Shown: positions 1,233 through 58,776 of the stretch, in pieces | Numbering within the stretch: the first letter of the stretch is position 1 | How the letters are laid out: each line of letters begins with the position of its first letter | Assembly (NCBI GenBank): GCA_965218295.1 | Contig: CBDCKN010000013.1 | Span: 320,001 to 384,000, forward strand | From: Longimicrobiales bacterium | GTDB taxonomy: Bacteria > Gemmatimonadota > Gemmatimonadetes > Longimicrobiales > Gaopeijiaceae | Length of the DNA: 64,000 nt | Reading direction: 5' to 3' | Translations under genes and position numbers: made by a program | Notes under the pieces: generated by a model | Seen by the model: the letters and a program-made list of their open reading frames with translations, nothing else | Databases searched by the model: none | What the model was told of the DNA's origin: nothing

Positions 1233-1398
1233 TAGTGTTCCGTTTCCGAAGTTCGCGAGCCACCAAGAGGGCCGGGGCGCCGTGGGATCAAGGCGGGACG
1301 ACGCGGCGTAGCGCAAGCTACGGTAAGGAGTCCCAACGCCGAGGCCGCGGATGCACCGTGCCCTCGACTGGCCGAGACACTTCGGTAACGGGACACTA
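1233..1398. mobile_element. MITE-like element, family A, copy 1 (166 nt including both TA ends)
   Basis: Imperfect TIRs TAGTGTTCCGTTTCCGAAGT ... ACTTCGGTAACGGGACACTA, both in CTAG context. Its reverse complement aligns with 42083-42245 and 58567-58776. No transposase ORF. Confidence 0.85.
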
Positions 1399-19392: not shown

Positions 19393-19487
19393 CTCCTCGT
19401 CGTTCCTACTCTGAGCCTCACAAGACCGGGGCACCCGCGCCGAAGGCGTGGGTCGCGCGACCCACTGTACTCCTTCAATGGGCCTCT
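19393..19487. mobile_element. Truncated family B element (right arm) carrying a nested hairpin module
   Basis: TCGTCGTTCCTACTCTGAGCCTC.CAAGACC and GCGCGACCCACTGTACTCC.TC are near-identical to 34278-34340. Confidence 0.75.
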
Positions 19488-19490
19488 GCG

Positions 19491-29031: not shown

Positions 29032-30294
29032 CTAAAGCCGGTTCAGCCACGGGAACGGATCGTCGGGCTCGCCATCGGAGGGTCCGTCCGGAGCGAGGGA
29101 CTCGATGGGAACCACCGGACGATCGTCGTGAACGGAGGACGCATCCCCCGTCGCCAGGGATCCAACCGGCTCCAGATCGGCTACCGGTGGCTCCACCACC
29201 AGAGGCTCCGGATCCGGCGCGAGGTCCTCCACGGGAACCGCCGGCTCGGCTGCAACGGCCTCCGCCGGGTCCGGGTCCGGAGCCAAGGACTCGATGGGAA
29301 CCACCCGACGGTCGTCCGCGGCCGCCGCTTCCTCCTGTATCGCGACCGGCGCCTCGTCCATGGCAACAGGTGCTTCGGCGACCACCGGCTCCGGGTCAGG
29401 CGCCAGGGATTCGATGGGGACTAGGGGAGGATCGTCGGCTAGTTCTGTGTCGATACGCCAGGTCAGCTCGGCCACGCGGTGAAGGAATATCCCATTGTCG
29501 GGATCATCGGCCAGGAGCTTCCGGTAGACCTCCACCGCCTTGTCCACGGCGCCTTGCTTCGCGTAAAGCTCGGCTAGCGTCTGGGTGTAGATCTCCCCTT
29601 CATCCTCGGCCACGACCTCGTCCGGGGGCTCCACCTCCACGACAGGCTCCTCGAGCGCGACCTCGTCCGGGGGCTCCACCTCCACGACAGGCTCCTCGGC
29701 CACGTCCTCGGCCGGGGGCTCCACCTCCACGACAGGCTCCTCGAGCGCGACCTCGTCCGGGGCCGACACCTCCGCCGTCTCCAGCGGCGCCGCATCCTCC
29801 ACCGGAACCGCCTCCGCAAGCGCCTCCTCCACCACCGGCTCCTCCGGCGCCACCGCCTCGGTTCCGGCGGCCGTAGACGCTTCCGCCACCTCGGCCTGGA
29901 AGCTCTCCAGCGCAGCAAGCACCTCCGGATCGTCGGGCTCTAGCTCGACCAGCCTCTCCAAGTACGTCAGTCCCCGACTGGAATCTTCCACCAGCTCGGC
30001 CAGGGAGCGCAGAGCCACCCCGTTCTCGGCATCGAGCTCCAGGACTCGCTCCAACGCGCGGATCGCGCTGTCGTCCTCCCCCCGATCCCGGTACAGCCAC
30101 CCCGCCACCACGTGACCCGAAGCGGAATCGGGGTGGGCAACCAGTCCCTCCTGAAGCACGCTGAGAGCCCGGTCCAACTCGCCCAGCCGACGGTGAGCGT
30201 CGGCCAGGGGCACGAAGGCGCGACCGGTAGGATCCTTCTCGGAAAAGAAGATCTCCTGAAGCCGATCGATCTGCTGATTCAGCGGTTCGGGCAC
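29032..30294 (-). CDS. Tetratricopeptide-repeat protein with acidic repeat linker
   Basis: N-terminal TPRs (FVPLADAHRRLG), internal YTQTLAELYAKQG TPR; GTG start at 30294 after GGGGAG. Confidence 0.8.
   Translation of the reverse strand: MPEPLNQQIDRLQEIFFSEKDPTGRAFVPLADAHRRLGELDRALSVLQEGLVAHPDSASGHVVAGWLYRDRGEDDSAIRALERVLELDAENGVALRSLAELVEDSSRGLTYLERLVELEPDDPEVLAALESFQAEVAEASTAAGTEAVAPEEPVVEEALAEAVPVEDAAPLETAEVSAPDEVALEEPVVEVEPPAEDVAEEPVVEVEPPDEVALEEPVVEVEPPDEVVAEDEGEIYTQTLAELYAKQGAVDKAVEVYRKLLADDPDNGIFLHRVAELTWRIDTELADDPPLVPIESLAPDPEPVVAEAPVAMDEAPVAIQEEAAAADDRRVVPIESLAPDPDPAEAVAAEPAVPVEDLAPDPEPLVVEPPVADLEPVGSLATGDASSVHDDRPVVPIESLAPDGPSDGEPDDPFPWLNRL
29604..29762 (-). repeat. 45-nt coding tandem repeat (~3.5 copies; PDEVALEEPVVEVEP)
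   Basis: Direct repeats with period 45 starting at 29613, 29658, 29703 and 29748. Confidence 0.9.
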
Positions 30295-34075: not shown

Positions 34076-34351
34076 TAGAAGGCTGTGGAGGGAGTACAGC
34101 GGGTCGCGTTAGGAGCGCCGAGGGTCCAGCGCGTAGGCGGCGCGACGACGCGATGCTGTAGTATCGGGGAGGAGCGCCAACACCGGCGATGGGCCCTCGC
34201 CGCCCTAACCCGAAGGGCACAGGGGGGTTGCGGTCTCATAGGTCGTCTCTTCTCCTCGCCGTAGCCCTGCTACGACTCGTCGTCGTTCCTACTCTGAGCC
34301 TCGCAAGACCCCTGTGCGCGACCCACTGTACTCCCTCCACAGCCTTCTCTA
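34076..34351. mobile_element. MITE-like element, family B (~275 nt)
   Basis: 32-nt TIR with one mismatch, AGAAGGCTGTGGAGGGAGTACAG(C/T)GGGTCGCG, at 34077-34108 and 34317-34348, in TTAG/CTAG contexts. Contains two oppositely oriented copies of the core also found in family A. Confidence 0.88.
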
Positions 34352-36213
34352 GTCCCGGAGGGCCCGCAAGCGCTCCGTAACGTCCGCGAAGTTGATGTCC
34401 AGAGAAAACACCCTGTCGTAAAACTCTAGGGCCTGGTCCTTGTTCCCAACAGCCTCGTAGGACTTGCCCAAGTAGTAGTAGATGCCCATGAGCTCGTCCT
34501 CGACCTCAAAAGGCGCGTCGAGGGCGCGGGTGAGAGATCGGAGGGCAGCCTCAGGCTCACCCTTCTGAGGAACGTCTGACCGAGCAGCTCGTAAGTGGCA
34601 AGGTGGTCTGCGGAGGCACGTAGCGCCTGTTGGTACTCGCCGATGGCTTCGTCAAGCAGGCCCATCTCCTTGAAGGCCGTACCCAGGTCATAATGTGCCG
34701 TGGCGTCGTCGGCTCCGATGTTCTCGGACACCTTCTCCCGGAACTGCGAGAGCATGCGCTGGAAGTCCGCCGACTCGTCTCCGGTGGGCTCCTCGTAGGC
34801 CACCACGAATCGGGTGGTCTTCTCTTCCTCGTCCCCGAGGAGCATAGAGCCCAGATCGACGTAGGATTCCGCCGAGGAGACCTCCTGAGCCGCCTCGGCC
34901 GCCGTCTCTCCCTCGAGCTGGCCCAACGCCGCCTTGGCCCGCTCGTTGGTGGGATCCGTCGACAGGGCCTGCTCGAACACGGCCTTGGCCCGCGTCTCCT
35001 GCCCGGCCCGCTGCAGACACTCGGCGAGACCCAGGTAGGCCTCTGCGAGGGCCCCCGAGTCGTTGGAGCGGAACGCGTACTCCACCATGCGCTGGTGATG
35101 GTTCTGGTCATCGGGCTCCGCCTCCACGACGGCGGAGAGCGCCTCGATAGCCTCCAGGAAATCTCCCGCGGAAGCCAGAGCCTCGTGATCTGAGACGGCA
35201 TCCTCCGCCTTGGCTTCGGCCACCGACTCTTCCACCGCCGCCTCGACGGCTTCTTCGGCGACAGACCCGTCATCCAGGCCCTCGAGCCCCACCTCGATCT
35301 CGGGACGCTCCTCGGCAGGCGCCTCGACGGCATCCTCTTCGTCATCGTCGAAGGACAAGAGAGGCAGGTCCATAACGGCCTCTTCTTCTTTCTCGTCCGC
35401 CGCTTCGACGTCGAGAGACAGGCCACCCGTGTCCACCTCTACGGCCTCCTCTTCGGCCTCTTCCTCGTCACCCCCGATCTCCAAGCCACCGGCCTCGATC
35501 TCCCCGGGCACGCCCGGCTCCCCGGCGGTGGGCTCCTCGAAGCCAACGTCTCCAAGGCCATCGTCGGCGCCGGAAGCGACGCCGGCCATGGGCGCGGCTT
35601 CGAGCGAAGCGGTGGGATCCATCTCCTGAATCTGGGCCTCGACCTGCGCGGCATCCTCTACCATCCCCTTCCCCATCATGATCTGATGGGCGCCGACCAG
35701 CTGCTGGACGGCCTCGCTCATCCGGTCGTGTTGCCCCAGCTGGGCCGCCAGGAGCTGTCGGATCTCGTAGTCGTCGGGCGCTAGGTCCACGAACTCGATG
35801 AGGGCCCGGAAGGCCTCGTCCATATCCCCGAAGGCCTGTACGCGCTCGGCGTAGGTGATGAAGCTGGCGCGGGCGTCGGTGATGAAGCCCTGTGCCGCCC
35901 GGATCTGGCCGATCTTCAAGTGGATCGTGTACCGATCCGGGAGATTGCGCATCACCTTCTTGCAGATGGCGATCGCGTTGTTGGGAAGCTCCGCCTCGAC
36001 GTAGTAGTCGACGGCCCTCTCGTAGAAGCTCACCGCCTGAGCAGAAGCGCCGGTCCGGGTCGCGAGGTCGCCGGCACGGTTGAACAGGCCGATGTCCGGG
36101 ACGTCCTCGTCGGACATCTGGTCGATGGCCTTGACATACAGGTTCAACGCCTTCTGCCACTCTTCCTTCTGCTCGTGACCCCGGGCCAGCTCTTTTATCG
36201 CTTCTACGCTCAT
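34349..36213 (-). CDS. Large TPR protein, SgmX-like architecture (apparent -1 frameshift at ~34568)
   Basis: N-terminal TPRs, acidic linker, DATAHYDLGTAFKEMGLLDEAI; corrected C-terminus ...IYYYLGKSYE...DINFADVTERLRALRD*. Confidence 0.8.
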
Positions 36214-42082: not shown

Positions 42083-42245
42083 TAGTGTCCCGTCCCAGAA
42101 GTGCGATGGCATTCGGGCACCGATGCATCCATCCTGGCGGCGTTGCTCCTCCTCGAAATAGCGGTGCTATTCCTCGTCGTCGCGCCTTGCCAGGACGGCG
42201 CCTCGGCACCCTCGGTGCGGACCGCTCTTCTGGGACGGAACACTA
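42083..42245. mobile_element. MITE-like element, family A, copy 2 (163 nt)
   Basis: TIRs TAGTGTCCCGTCCCAGAAG ... CTTCTGGGACGGAACACTA; internal hairpin AATAGC-GGT-GCTATT. Confidence 0.88.
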
Positions 42246-50340: not shown

Positions 50341-51468
50341 CTACCTCATCTTGCGATCCAAGTGTACCGCGATCCCGGTGTGGAACACAGGCCCCTGTAA
50401 GGATACGATCCTCGCCGAAGACGTCTGGCTCTCCGTCGCCACCACCCGGAGCCGGCCCACCACCTCCTCGGTCGAGCCGTCACCCTCGAATGCGACGTAC
50501 TCGTCGCCGATTTCCACCCCGTGCTCCCCACCTCTGTCTAGAATAGCGACATCGCTAAGGCCGTACAGGGCGTGCCTGCCACCGAACTCGACGACGGTAG
50601 CGCTGGTGCGGTTCGTCACCACGTCCGGATACTGGCCCGCCTCTAGGTCGAAGTCCGGTGCCGGCCGGACCAAGTCACCCAGCAGCACCCGCCCGAAGGG
50701 CTGTAGCACCACACCCTCGGTACCCTCGCCATCGGCTCTGGTGATGGACAGCACCCCTGTGGGACGGATGATGGAGCCTACGCCCTCGACGGCCCGCACG
50801 GGCCGGAAGATCTGAAGGGCGTCGCCCGCGGCGACGCGGAAGCCGTCGTCGAGGGAGAGACGGACCCGCGTGAACGTAAAGGCGGTGCGGAGCTCACCCT
50901 GTGCGATGAACGACTCGATCTCGCCGTCGGACTCGACGTCGTCGGTGTTCTCGGGCCCTAGCCACTCGGCCGACCATACCGACGCTCGGCTCACGAACAT
51001 GTAGTCGGCCTCCTCGAGCCCTCGAACACCCGTTGAGGTCATCGGATCACGGTAGAAGACGGATCGCCGGTCCCGCTCGCTGTTCGCCTCCTCGGCCTCG
51101 GCGCCGCCCGGCGGGGCATCCGGGGCCTGCGGACGTGCCGCAACGACCTCCACGCCCCCTACGATCGCAGGCTCGTCCGCGGCGACCGCAGGCTCGTCCG
51201 CGGCGACCGCAGGCTCGTCCGCGGCGATTCCGAAAATCACGAACTCCTGGTCCGGATAGATGAGGTGCGGGTCCCCGATCTGGGGCCGATTCGCCTCGTA
51301 AATGCGTGGCCACTGGAACGGATCCTCGTAATAGCGCTGGGCCAGGGCCCAGAGGGTCTCTCCAGTCACAACCACGTGCGTCCGGGAAGCGGTCTGTGCG
51401 GGCTGCTGTGCAACCGCAAAACCGGGGAAAATTGACAAGGCCAGCACGGCTATGGCGGACCGGACCAT
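50341..51468 (-). CDS. LysM peptidoglycan-binding exported protein (TsaP-like)
   Basis: Signal peptide, HVVVTGETLWALAQRYYEDPFQWPRIY..PHLIYP, C-terminal ILDRG...G...GD. Confidence 0.82.
   Translation of the reverse strand: MVRSAIAVLALSIFPGFAVAQQPAQTASRTHVVVTGETLWALAQRYYEDPFQWPRIYEANRPQIGDPHLIYPDQEFVIFGIAADEPAVAADEPAVAADEPAIVGGVEVVAARPQAPDAPPGGAEAEEANSERDRRSVFYRDPMTSTGVRGLEEADYMFVSRASVWSAEWLGPENTDDVESDGEIESFIAQGELRTAFTFTRVRLSLDDGFRVAAGDALQIFRPVRAVEGVGSIIRPTGVLSITRADGEGTEGVVLQPFGRVLLGDLVRPAPDFDLEAGQYPDVVTNRTSATVVEFGGRHALYGLSDVAILDRGGEHGVEIGDEYVAFEGDGSTEEVVGRLRVVATESQTSSARIVSLQGPVFHTGIAVHLDRKMR
51166..51227 (-). repeat. 21-nt coding tandem repeat x3 (AADEPAV)
   Basis: CGCAGGCTCGTCCGCGGCGAC repeated three times. 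Confidence 0.92.
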
Positions 51469-57703: not shown

Positions 57704-57897
57704 ATGAAATCTATGCGTCTACTCGCTTTCCTCGCCATCGGCGTCACTTCGTTGGTGCTCTCGTACACCGGCGGCGAATCCCCCACGGGGGACGGCTCGG
57801 GAGGCTGGATCCGGGGGAGACCGCCACCCTCACTGGAGTAGCGACCGTGGAGGCGTTCGCGGCAGGCGGGTTCGTGATCAGCAGAGTGATCTCATAA
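57704..57897 (+). pseudogene. Probable decayed lipoprotein gene fragment
   Basis: MKSMRLLAFLAIGVTSLVLSYTGGESPTG has signal-peptide shape with Tyr at the lipobox Cys position; a shifted frame continues LDPGETATLTGVATVE to an early stop. Confidence 0.4.
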
Positions 57898-58566
57898 CAA
57901 GCCCCCGTCCTCGGCAATGGACACGAAGCGGCCATCGCCCACCACCACGTGGTCGACGACCGGAATGCCCACCGCCGTACCGGCACGCGCAAGCTGGCTG
58001 GTCACTGCCCGGTCCTCCGCCGAGGGGGTCGGATCGCCCGACGGGTGGTTGTGGACGAGGATGATGCCGGCCGCGCTCCGGACGATTGCGGGCCTGAACA
58101 CCTCCCGGGGGTGGATGAGGGAGGCGTCCAAGATGCCACGCCTGATGAGAACCTCCCCGATCACGCGGTGCTGAGACGACAGCAGGAGCGCGTGGAACTC
58201 CTCCTGCTGCAGGTCGCGCAGGCGCGGCTCCATGCGGTCGAATACGTCCCTGGCGCCACGGATGCGCTCTCCCGGGTAGCGCTCCTCAGCGCTCGCCCTA
58301 CGCCCCAGCTCCAGGGCGGCCGAGATCCGGGCGGAGGTGGCCTCCCCTACCCCGCGGATGGCCGTAATCCCCAGCGGCGTAAGGGATCCCATTGCCCGGA
58401 GGGACCCGTTCACACCGGCCAGCACCGCCTCCGCGATCTCCAGCACCGAGGCCTCGCGGCCCCCACTCCCAATCGGAATCGCCAGCAGCTCGCGGCTCGA
58501 GAGGGCCCCGGGACCCAGCGTGATGAGGCGCTCGCGTGGGCGCTCCTCGGGGGGGAGACAGTGAAT
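57892..58566 (-). CDS. radC: RadC (JAB/MPN) family protein; start codon unresolved
   Basis: ERPRERL, HhH region, IHPREVF and HNHPSGDPTPSAED JAMM motif; no ATG/GTG between the repeat element and ERPRE. Confidence 0.9.
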   Translation of the reverse strand: MHCLPPEERPRERLITLGPGALSSRELLAIPIGSGGREASVLEIAEAVLAGVNGSLRAMGSLTPLGITAIRGVGEATSARISAALELGRRASAEERYPGERIRGARDVFDRMEPRLRDLQQEEFHALLLSSQHRVIGEVLIRRGILDASLIHPREVFRPAIVRSAAGIILVHNHPSGDPTPSAEDRAVTSQLARAGTAVGIPVVDHVVVGDGRFVSIAEDGGLL

Positions 58567-58776
58567 TAGTGTGGTGTCCCAGAAGTGTCTCGGCCATTCG
58601 AGCACCGATGCATCCGGCCCTGCGGCGTTCCTCCTCCTCGGACCACGGCCTTCGGCCGCGGTGCCCGCGTTGCTATTCCTCGTCGTCGCGCCCGACCCAC
58701 GCCTAACGGCGCGGGTACCCCGGATCCGGCGCCTCGGCACTCTCGGTGGCTCGCGAACTTCTGGGACACCACACTA
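58567..58776. mobile_element. MITE-like element, family A, copy 3 (210 nt, two nested hairpin modules)
   Basis: Perfect 20-nt TIR TAGTGTGGTGTCCCAGAAGT ... ACTTCTGGGACACCACACTA; colinear with copy 2 apart from two inserts. Confidence 0.9.

Follow-up and report, generated by a model that had tools for sequence, protein, structure and literature searches.

The window, that is, the whole 64-kb stretch of DNA analysed here, comes from a genome of 3.57 Mb that is 90.7% complete (G000). It holds three short hairpin modules, at 58641-58666 and 58694-58721 on the plus strand and at 19428-19454 on the minus strand, where the strings reported in an earlier note on this DNA were located exactly. The first is a type-1 module of 26 nt (G-ACC...GGT-GCCC) and the second a type-2 module of 28 nt (G-ACCC...GGGT-ACCCC). 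Both lie within an IS630-type MITE of family A at 58569..58774, which has TA on both sides (58567-58568 and 58775-58776). The third, a type-2 module of 27 nt, lies in a partial copy of a second host family, B, at 19396..19489. Module-free host copies occur on the plus strand at 42085..42243 (family A) and 34076..34349 (family B, full length), and on the minus strand at 1235..1396 (subfamily A1), the sister copies of which carry a 22-nt module instead of CGTA. Sister copies of the family-B repeat at 34076..34349 bear modules at further positions. A RadC/JAB gene (57892-58557, minus strand) directly adjoins the 58.6-kb MITE, and this neighbourhood is probably due to chance, because the orthologues in the close relatives G001 and G002 have no MITE there. 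A contig from an RNA library spans 58610-58751, which is no demonstration of transcription, and Rfam gave no matches at gathering score within the window. Coding tandem repeats were also seen in low-complexity ORFs of the window at 29086-29875 (45-nt units), 35227-35470 (units of about 63 nt) and 51153-51227 (21-nt units).

The modules were aligned with module-free copies of their hosts, and each was found to stand in place of a short host tract. The module at 58641..58666 replaces AAATA, present in the 42-kb copy at 42156-42160, as the earlier note had claimed; the lost bases are the left arm of a host hairpin, the right arm of which, GCTATT, is retained. The module at 19428..19454 replaces ACAGG (CCTGT on the plus strand), and the 34-kb copy, with this tract at 34311-34315, bore out the corresponding claim. 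For the module at 58694..58721, a loss of about 5-6 nt had been proposed; the replacement was confirmed but not its length, since the closer module-free sister copies show TGCA (4 nt). Folding of all three agreed with the 9-bp stem described before, with one A.C mismatch on the GACC strand, while the GGG strand is fully paired with a G.T. The fold energies of the GGG strands were -9.1, -10.4, and -9.1 kcal/mol compared to -7.0, -7.7, and -7.0 kcal/mol for the GACC strands. The GGG strand folds better by 2.1-2.7 kcal/mol because the A.C becomes G.T.

The three window modules are not independent fresh events at these places, and other copies of the host repeats carry the same modules at the same host positions. 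G001 and G002 have an empty site with one TA at the position orthologous to the 58.6-kb MITE (loci L332 and L333), and contigs of two sequencing runs (X3 and X4) skip 208 nt there. Hence a MITE inserted recently at 58569-58774 and carried both modules in, and the module copies of the window are passengers that arrived inside a MITE host. At 19.4 kb, G001 and G002 share the right end of the orthologous site, but the inner tract ahead of it differs and holds no module, a pattern which points to an exchange between host copies.

The terminal inverted repeats of family A resemble those of IS630 elements of G001, G002, and G287 (ends at L247, L249, L250, and L255), and a duplicated TA was present on both sides in 16 of the 19 complete family-A copies matched. 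Family B has the same TA-bounded look. At the three module sites of family A, the states 000, 00M, 0MM, M0M, and MMM all occur, and therefore recombination or repeated gain is needed. Other host copies showed further variation: long family-A variants with an extra inner segment of about 60 nt (G000 C6:61967-62274, C14:149632-149941, and C6:51729-52004), and a family-B MITE with three modules that is interrupted by a multicopy IS of 1.4 kb with an ORF of 423 aa (G000 C3:343834-345627).

The genome was then scanned for the module unit, which is G-ACC-stem-loop-stem-GGT-RCCC (type 1) or G-ACCC...GGGT-RCCCC (type 2) and measures 22-31 nt. The strict scan of G000 gave 29 copies, well over the three first noticed, whereas each of three shuffles gave 0 and the reversed genome gave 1. 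The relaxed scan gave 40 copies, 37 of them in MITEs (33 assigned by script and 4 by eye), one in an IS91-like remnant, and two that are probably chance matches. The host MITEs cover about 0.45% of the genome. Altogether, 91 distinct module sequences were found among 294 occurrences in G000 and the fetched loci, and the loop was closed by C-G in 88 of the 91 and was of the T..C kind in 63, in a set that is partly ascertained because one search fixed TTC and that includes a few chance matches. Most stem mismatches (51 of 57) were A.C, or G.T on the other strand, so the two strands differ.

In the harvest by module ends only, 47 of 63 distinct 22-mers folded vs 1 of 7 in the reversed sequence, and C-G, A-T, T-A, and G-C pairs were swapped in the stems. 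All four TNC loops were recovered in this harvest (TTC 13, TGC 9, TCC 7, and TAC 4). The ends of the module are fixed while its stem is free but covarying, and the stem is thus under structural constraint. On the opposite (GGG) strand, the loops read G-N-A closed by C-G. A G-N-A triloop closed by C-G is an extra-stable DNA mini-hairpin. The conserved 3' end of the module also holds the palindrome GGYRCC, for example at 58660-58666 and 58713-58721 of the window, which is a restriction-site word.

The distribution of the module was wide and patchy. The loose pattern matched 33, 102, and 84 times in G000, G001, and G002 compared to 11 times in each of the controls, and 16 times in G003 (10 in the control), with clear folded variants. 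The counts in the other 37 relatives were near the control, and the exact 22-mer was found in none of 250 other sampled genomes of Gemmatimonadota; the unpublished genome G025 is one row in both tallies and enters no other result. The planctomycete genome G291 gave 124 matches vs 14 in its control. In another genome, G294, 42 modules showed a strand bias of 29:13, with long same-strand runs along contig C1.

A pattern scan of GTDB (10 of 64 parts) yielded 111 loci, and 41 of the 114 matches folded; about half of the matches are chance matches in coding sequence. By eye, the folded matches comprised 15 in MITEs, 9 in IS91-like genes, 7 in GGGACAGTCC palindromes, 2 in CCCTCTCC palindromes, and 8 others or chance matches. 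The records with modules belong to Gemmatimonadota, Planctomycetota, and Eisenbacteria, plus one alphaproteobacterial record, and none of the 111 GTDB loci listed was cyanobacterial. The host repeat occurred in records titled Longimicrobiales or Gemmatimonadota, which are possibly not independent of the same-genus genomes used. With a 24-mer pattern, 121 loci were obtained from 8 of the 64 parts of a metagenome collection, from which about 1000 stretches were estimated. Viral contigs gave two chance matches and then four loci, and the three inspected hold true modules in tRNA-like genes and REP-like repeats. The plasmid collection gave short weak matches only.

The targets of the module were MITEs, genes like those of IS91, IS3, and IS110, RT loci that resemble group II introns, REP-like palindromes, and tRNA arrays. 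The structured repeats of both host families, which the earlier note had taken for the target, are indeed hit, but they are only part of this range. The module interrupts ORFs of the IS3 family, an ORF which we take, from its motif, to be IS110-like, and tRNA genes of large arrays. A single IS91-like gene (L036) contained four modules within 1 kb, two per strand. One IS91-like motif was hit in at least three registers (L027, L036, L177, and L180), and one IS3 motif was hit in five loci with diverged flanks, the module being fixed by the search; it is unlikely that these five hits arose by spread of one frame-shifted IS with an unchanged insert. Modules also nest in their own loop several levels deep (L153, L286, and L324).

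The large syntenic tRNA arrays of planctomycete genomes and metagenome contigs were rich in modules (L327, L350, L369, L377, L383, and L451), and some of their genes hold two modules, with both orientations occurring. Among the 32 rows with a homologue, 22 modules were antisense and 10 sense, and they interrupted the D-arm, anticodon-arm, variable-loop, T-arm, and acceptor positions. After a clustering that over-merges, at least 46 distinct contexts remained. The flanks had C at -1 in 33/46, C at -3 in 27/46, and G at +1 in 28/46, with no fixed target word. Positions -1 and +1 were complementary in 33/45 of the metagenome set, which is partly due to the optional C and G of the unit. The replaced tracts had an unpaired probability of 0.55 compared to 0.41 in the flanks (p=0.04; p=0.08 on the other strand). 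Strict targeting of loops was rejected, with weak support and several targets that are stems.

Nearly all copies that survive are in DNA that is dispensable or mobile. Selection accounts for part of this confinement, but not a single copy lies in the ordinary intergenic DNA of G000. A module within a longer insertion at L120:250-400, in an ORF that by eye resembles a chemotaxis methylesterase/methyltransferase (Lacipirellulaceae record), is a possible case in an ordinary host gene.

Modules also mark rearrangement points of mobile elements. MITEs truncated at a module were found in G000 (C11:462 and C13:56-83), together with a chimera of MITE subfamilies joined at a module (C17:1768-1929), and in one IS91-like copy (L187:600-760) the left flank of one site is fused to the right flank belonging to a second site close to the gene's end.

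This range of contexts bears on whether the hairpin moves at all. It might instead be a useful binding or stabilising signal of few origins, for which host elements and recombination were the only means of spread. The structurally constrained stem would fit such a signal, as would the arrival of both 58.6-kb modules inside one MITE and the location of 37 of the 40 relaxed-scan copies in MITEs that make up so little of the genome. But a signal of this kind does not account for the 46 or more contexts, for tRNA and transposase genes that are broken, for different registers at one motif, or for self-nesting several levels deep (L153 and L286). We therefore consider it very unlikely, and this reading is disfavoured.

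The module is a derived insertion, which was gained and not lost. At module-free alleles, ORFs, tRNAs, and host hairpins are intact. For example, in the ORF matching Zn_Tnp_IS91 at L107, two modules replace AGAT and TAGGC of the module-free L135. A module-free allele was found for 58 of 172 flank keys, with a net loss of 3 nt (15), 4 nt (27), 5 nt (15), or 7 nt (1). At 30 non-redundant sites, which are 31 of 76 less one self-match (L285) and at which differing flank bases were counted as insert, the replaced tract was 4 nt (13), 5 nt (15), 3 nt (1), or 6 nt (1). The lengths were thus not random, with 4-5 nt at 28 of the 30, and no target-site duplication was seen at the junctions compared; replacement without duplication, as proposed before, was upheld. 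Extra terminal bases were present at some of these 30 sites (5' C at 6, and 3' C or G at 12).

In the tRNA arrays, a homologue was available for 32 of 57 rows, some of which repeat a site, and the net loss was 3 nt (16), 4 nt (13), or 5 nt (3). These rows mostly have C before and G after the core, and the replaced tract by hand count was 4 nt (6), 5 nt (16), or 6 nt (10). The idea that the module loop is taken from the replaced bases was rejected, because one site carries several loops and the loops mismatch the lost bases. Contigs of four runs, a type of data that drops rare variants, contained no excision or circle junction, and no module-only deletion was listed among the run contigs.

Since module-bearing and module-free host copies coexist, the module could in principle be ancestral and lost from the short copies, or an artefact of sequencing or assembly. 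The coding and tRNA targets fix the direction as a gain and refute an ancestral module, in line with the intact module-free alleles. Moreover, an orthologous copy has diverged between G000 and G001 (C3:132908 and L138), and the module sequence was found in contigs of runs from independent studies. Loss or artefact is thus hardly credible. The earlier proposal of an ultra-small, replace-type mobile unit stands as regards the derived state and the replacement of a short tract without duplication, but the copies in the window itself came inside a MITE.

Candidate partner enzymes were compared across genomes by Pfam domain. None of Y1, Y2, RT, Ku, and IS630 tracked the module, in that none was both necessary and specific; most genomes are incomplete and related genomes are not independent, which limits all of these counts. 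Y1 (PF01797) was absent from all four close genomes, G000-G003, of which G001 is one contig and 95% complete, and was present in 12 of 20 module-hit genomes (9/9 planctomycetes and 2/9 Gemmatimonadota). Y2 (PF04986) was present in 2 of the 4 close genomes and in 8 of the 20 (1/9 planctomycetes and 7/9 Gemmatimonadota). Three of the 20, as well as G000 and G002, had neither. Modules do not flank Y1 genes: one module was found in 95 kb around 30 Y1 genes of module-hit genomes, and it lies inside another repeat. The link to RAYT/Y1 suggested in the earlier note was therefore not supported. Module density differed between element types: Y2 loci contained 16 modules in 57 kb (a biased sample, as such hits had led to several of the genomes), RT loci 3 in 81 kb, and IS630 loci 0 in 33 kb.

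IS630 (PF13358) was present in 15/18 module genomes vs 5/15 module-free relatives. It was rejected as the partner, as its enrichment is confounded by element load; in G007 and G011, both one-contig genomes, IS630 copies are numerous but module counts are near the control. An autonomous element flanked by modules was also rejected, the close pairs in G001, G002, and G291 being, by eye, separate host copies around unrelated ORFs. The same pairs give no support to a solo-terminal-repeat model. When the 1459 ORFs around the 121 metagenome loci were clustered, every cluster was of the tRNA-array, IS91-like, IS3, or repeat-derived kind. Since insertions can predate their present hosts, the absence of an enzyme today does not exclude its past action.

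The RT counts raise the possibility of target-primed reverse transcription, in which a small module RNA would be copied at a nick, untemplated C or G would be added, and a few bases of the target would go missing. RT (PF00078) was present in 12/18 module genomes compared to 4/15 module-free relatives, and three modules lie in RT loci that by eye are group II intron-like (L263 and L278 in G291, and L260 in G287). Two of these are in the same upstream stem-loop with different 3' flanks, and one is in the N-terminal part of the ORF. The extra terminal C and G would fit such copying. Small target deletions are known for some retroelements, which also counts in its favor. On the other hand, the loops are G-N-A triloops of the DNA type and not tetraloops of the RNA type, RT is missing from 6 of the 18 genomes (incomplete ones), G001 has a fragment only, and no master copy was seen beside an RT. 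In addition, the two orientations in tRNA genes exclude the RNA of the target itself as the site of insertion, although a nick in DNA could still serve for priming. We regard reverse transcription as quite unlikely.

Repair without a dedicated enzyme is another explanation. A stalled 3' end, often terminating in C, in gap or break repair would switch template to a module copy or a released hairpin, copy it over its full length, and rejoin 4-6 nt downstream. The C-rich 5' flank that resembles the module tail, the ragged C and G at the ends, and the fact that no transposase tracks the module are consistent with this; host copies also exchange tracts (0MM, M0M, 00M, and MMM), and at 19.4 kb an entire inner tract distinguishes the site from its orthologues. 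However, generic repair leaves unexplained why the core ends are identical in three phyla. The patchy presence, with the exact 22-mer in 0/250 other sampled genomes of the phylum, argues against it too, and Ku (PF02735), which occurred in 8/18 module genomes vs 8/15 module-free relatives, does not track the module. Template switching is a serious contender, though on this evidence an unlikely one.

We prefer, at a probability of roughly 40%, the reading that the module, which has fixed ends, is derived, costs its target 4-6 nt without duplication, occurs in two orientations in one gene, nests, and spreads as a passenger, is a 22-31-nt hairpin transferred in single-stranded form into a short gap by a cut-and-join enzyme that acts in trans and is probably HUH-like. 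The working form would be the folded DNA hairpin, in view of the complete folding of the GGG strand and its G-N-A loops with C-G closure. The enzyme would read the foot of the stem and the RCCC tail, and the hairpin would be joined into a short gap in transiently single-stranded target DNA. Target choice may be loose, with a preference for a C-rich 5' flank similar to the tail of the module, much as target and element end are alike in IS91. The target would lose about half a helical turn, 4-6 bases, by a second cut or by trimming. Insertions would persist mainly in dispensable DNA. Later on, modules have spread as passengers of MITEs and of IS91-like elements. The clues to the active strand conflict: the fold favors the GGG strand, whereas the likeness of target and tail favors the GACC strand. 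The module is likely among the smallest mobile DNAs known.

A broader version can be put forward only tentatively. It holds that these cross-phylum micro-elements of 22-31 nt are true transposition substrates for which an undescribed replace-and-paste reaction of single strands fills a gap of five bases, and that they cluster in other mobile DNA, disable transposases and tRNA-array genes there, and seed deletions from which new non-autonomous elements arise, acting as a hyperparasite or as a host tagging system.

How repeats shorter than 30 nt spread, such as SDRs and REP singlets, is an old open question, and the dissemination of REPs is still described as unexplained in the accessible part of PMC8266576. 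In this family, alleles before and after insertion can be compared exactly in conserved genes and tRNAs, the loss is nearly constant at 4-6 nt, and distant phyla share identical units, so that the reaction can be specified and tested. A dedicated enzyme, if there is one, would place a short defined hairpin in DNA without duplication and with few sequence requirements. Furthermore, modules reshape other mobile elements, in which they break transposases and supply deletion end points.

REP and RAYT systems were compared through the available portions of PMC8266576, 10.1101/279083, PMC3116915, and PMC3733652. As these portions present REPs and REPINs, the module shares with them a short imperfect hairpin, a conserved tetranucleotide at the 5' foot of one strand (GGGY in the module), a high copy number, and insertion into other palindromes and transposase genes. 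Its stem is likewise imperfect and differs between strands. The foot on the better-folding strand is GGGC or GGGT, unlike the GT[AG]G given there for REPs. Unlike REPs served by TnpA_REP (RAYT, Y1 HUH), the module occurs in four closest genomes that lack Y1, and it does not flank Y1 genes. It stands as a singlet in place of host bases, and its targets include REPs with the GTAG tag; the GGGACAGTCC palindromes agree with the TIRYT consensus given in the accessible text of 10.1101/279083.

For IS91 (Y2 HUH, rolling circle), the consulted part of PMC13181058 describes transposition with no duplication, a single-strand intermediate, and related target and ter tetranucleotides. The module is similar in that it makes no target duplication, its target resembles the end of the element, and IS91-like genes are a frequent target. 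It differs from IS91, as portrayed in that part, by having no oriIS/terIS pair or ORF, by losing target bases, and by a loose C-S-C preference in place of a fixed tetranucleotide. A loss of target bases is not described in the available parts of the HUH papers cited. Unlike MITEs of the IS630 type (the RUP, NEMIS/Correia, and ERIC kind), the module has neither terminal repeats nor duplication, and the MITE is its host.

The closest known system appears to be the small dispersed repeats SDR1-8 of the Nostocaceae, a likeness drawn from their described features. Elhai and co-workers reportedly described these in 2008 as repeats of about 21-27 nt with a shared hairpin, present in minitransposons and heptamer repeats, self-nested, and judged mobile with the mechanism left open. 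The module resembles them in its size of 22-31 nt, its covarying hairpin, its presence in MITEs and in a heptamer-like tract (L082), and its self-nesting. SDRs are cited in PMC4390886, PMC5861425, and PMC2884548, and according to the accessible part of the first of these, SDR5 inserts precisely within HIP1. Unlike SDR5, the module has no fixed target word and removes 4-6 nt, although losses at SDR junctions may already be described, and unlike the SDRs of Nostocaceae it occurs in Gemmatimonadota, Planctomycetota, and Eisenbacteria. No description of this module family was found in the open literature, module strings included (subscription journals lie outside this coverage), so the view of the earlier note that the element is not a described one holds for the family, but its class resembles the cyanobacterial SDRs. 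These results indicate that the module is a real, derived, and repeatedly inserted SDR-like micro-element with a distinctive replace-five junction and a wide, patchy range.
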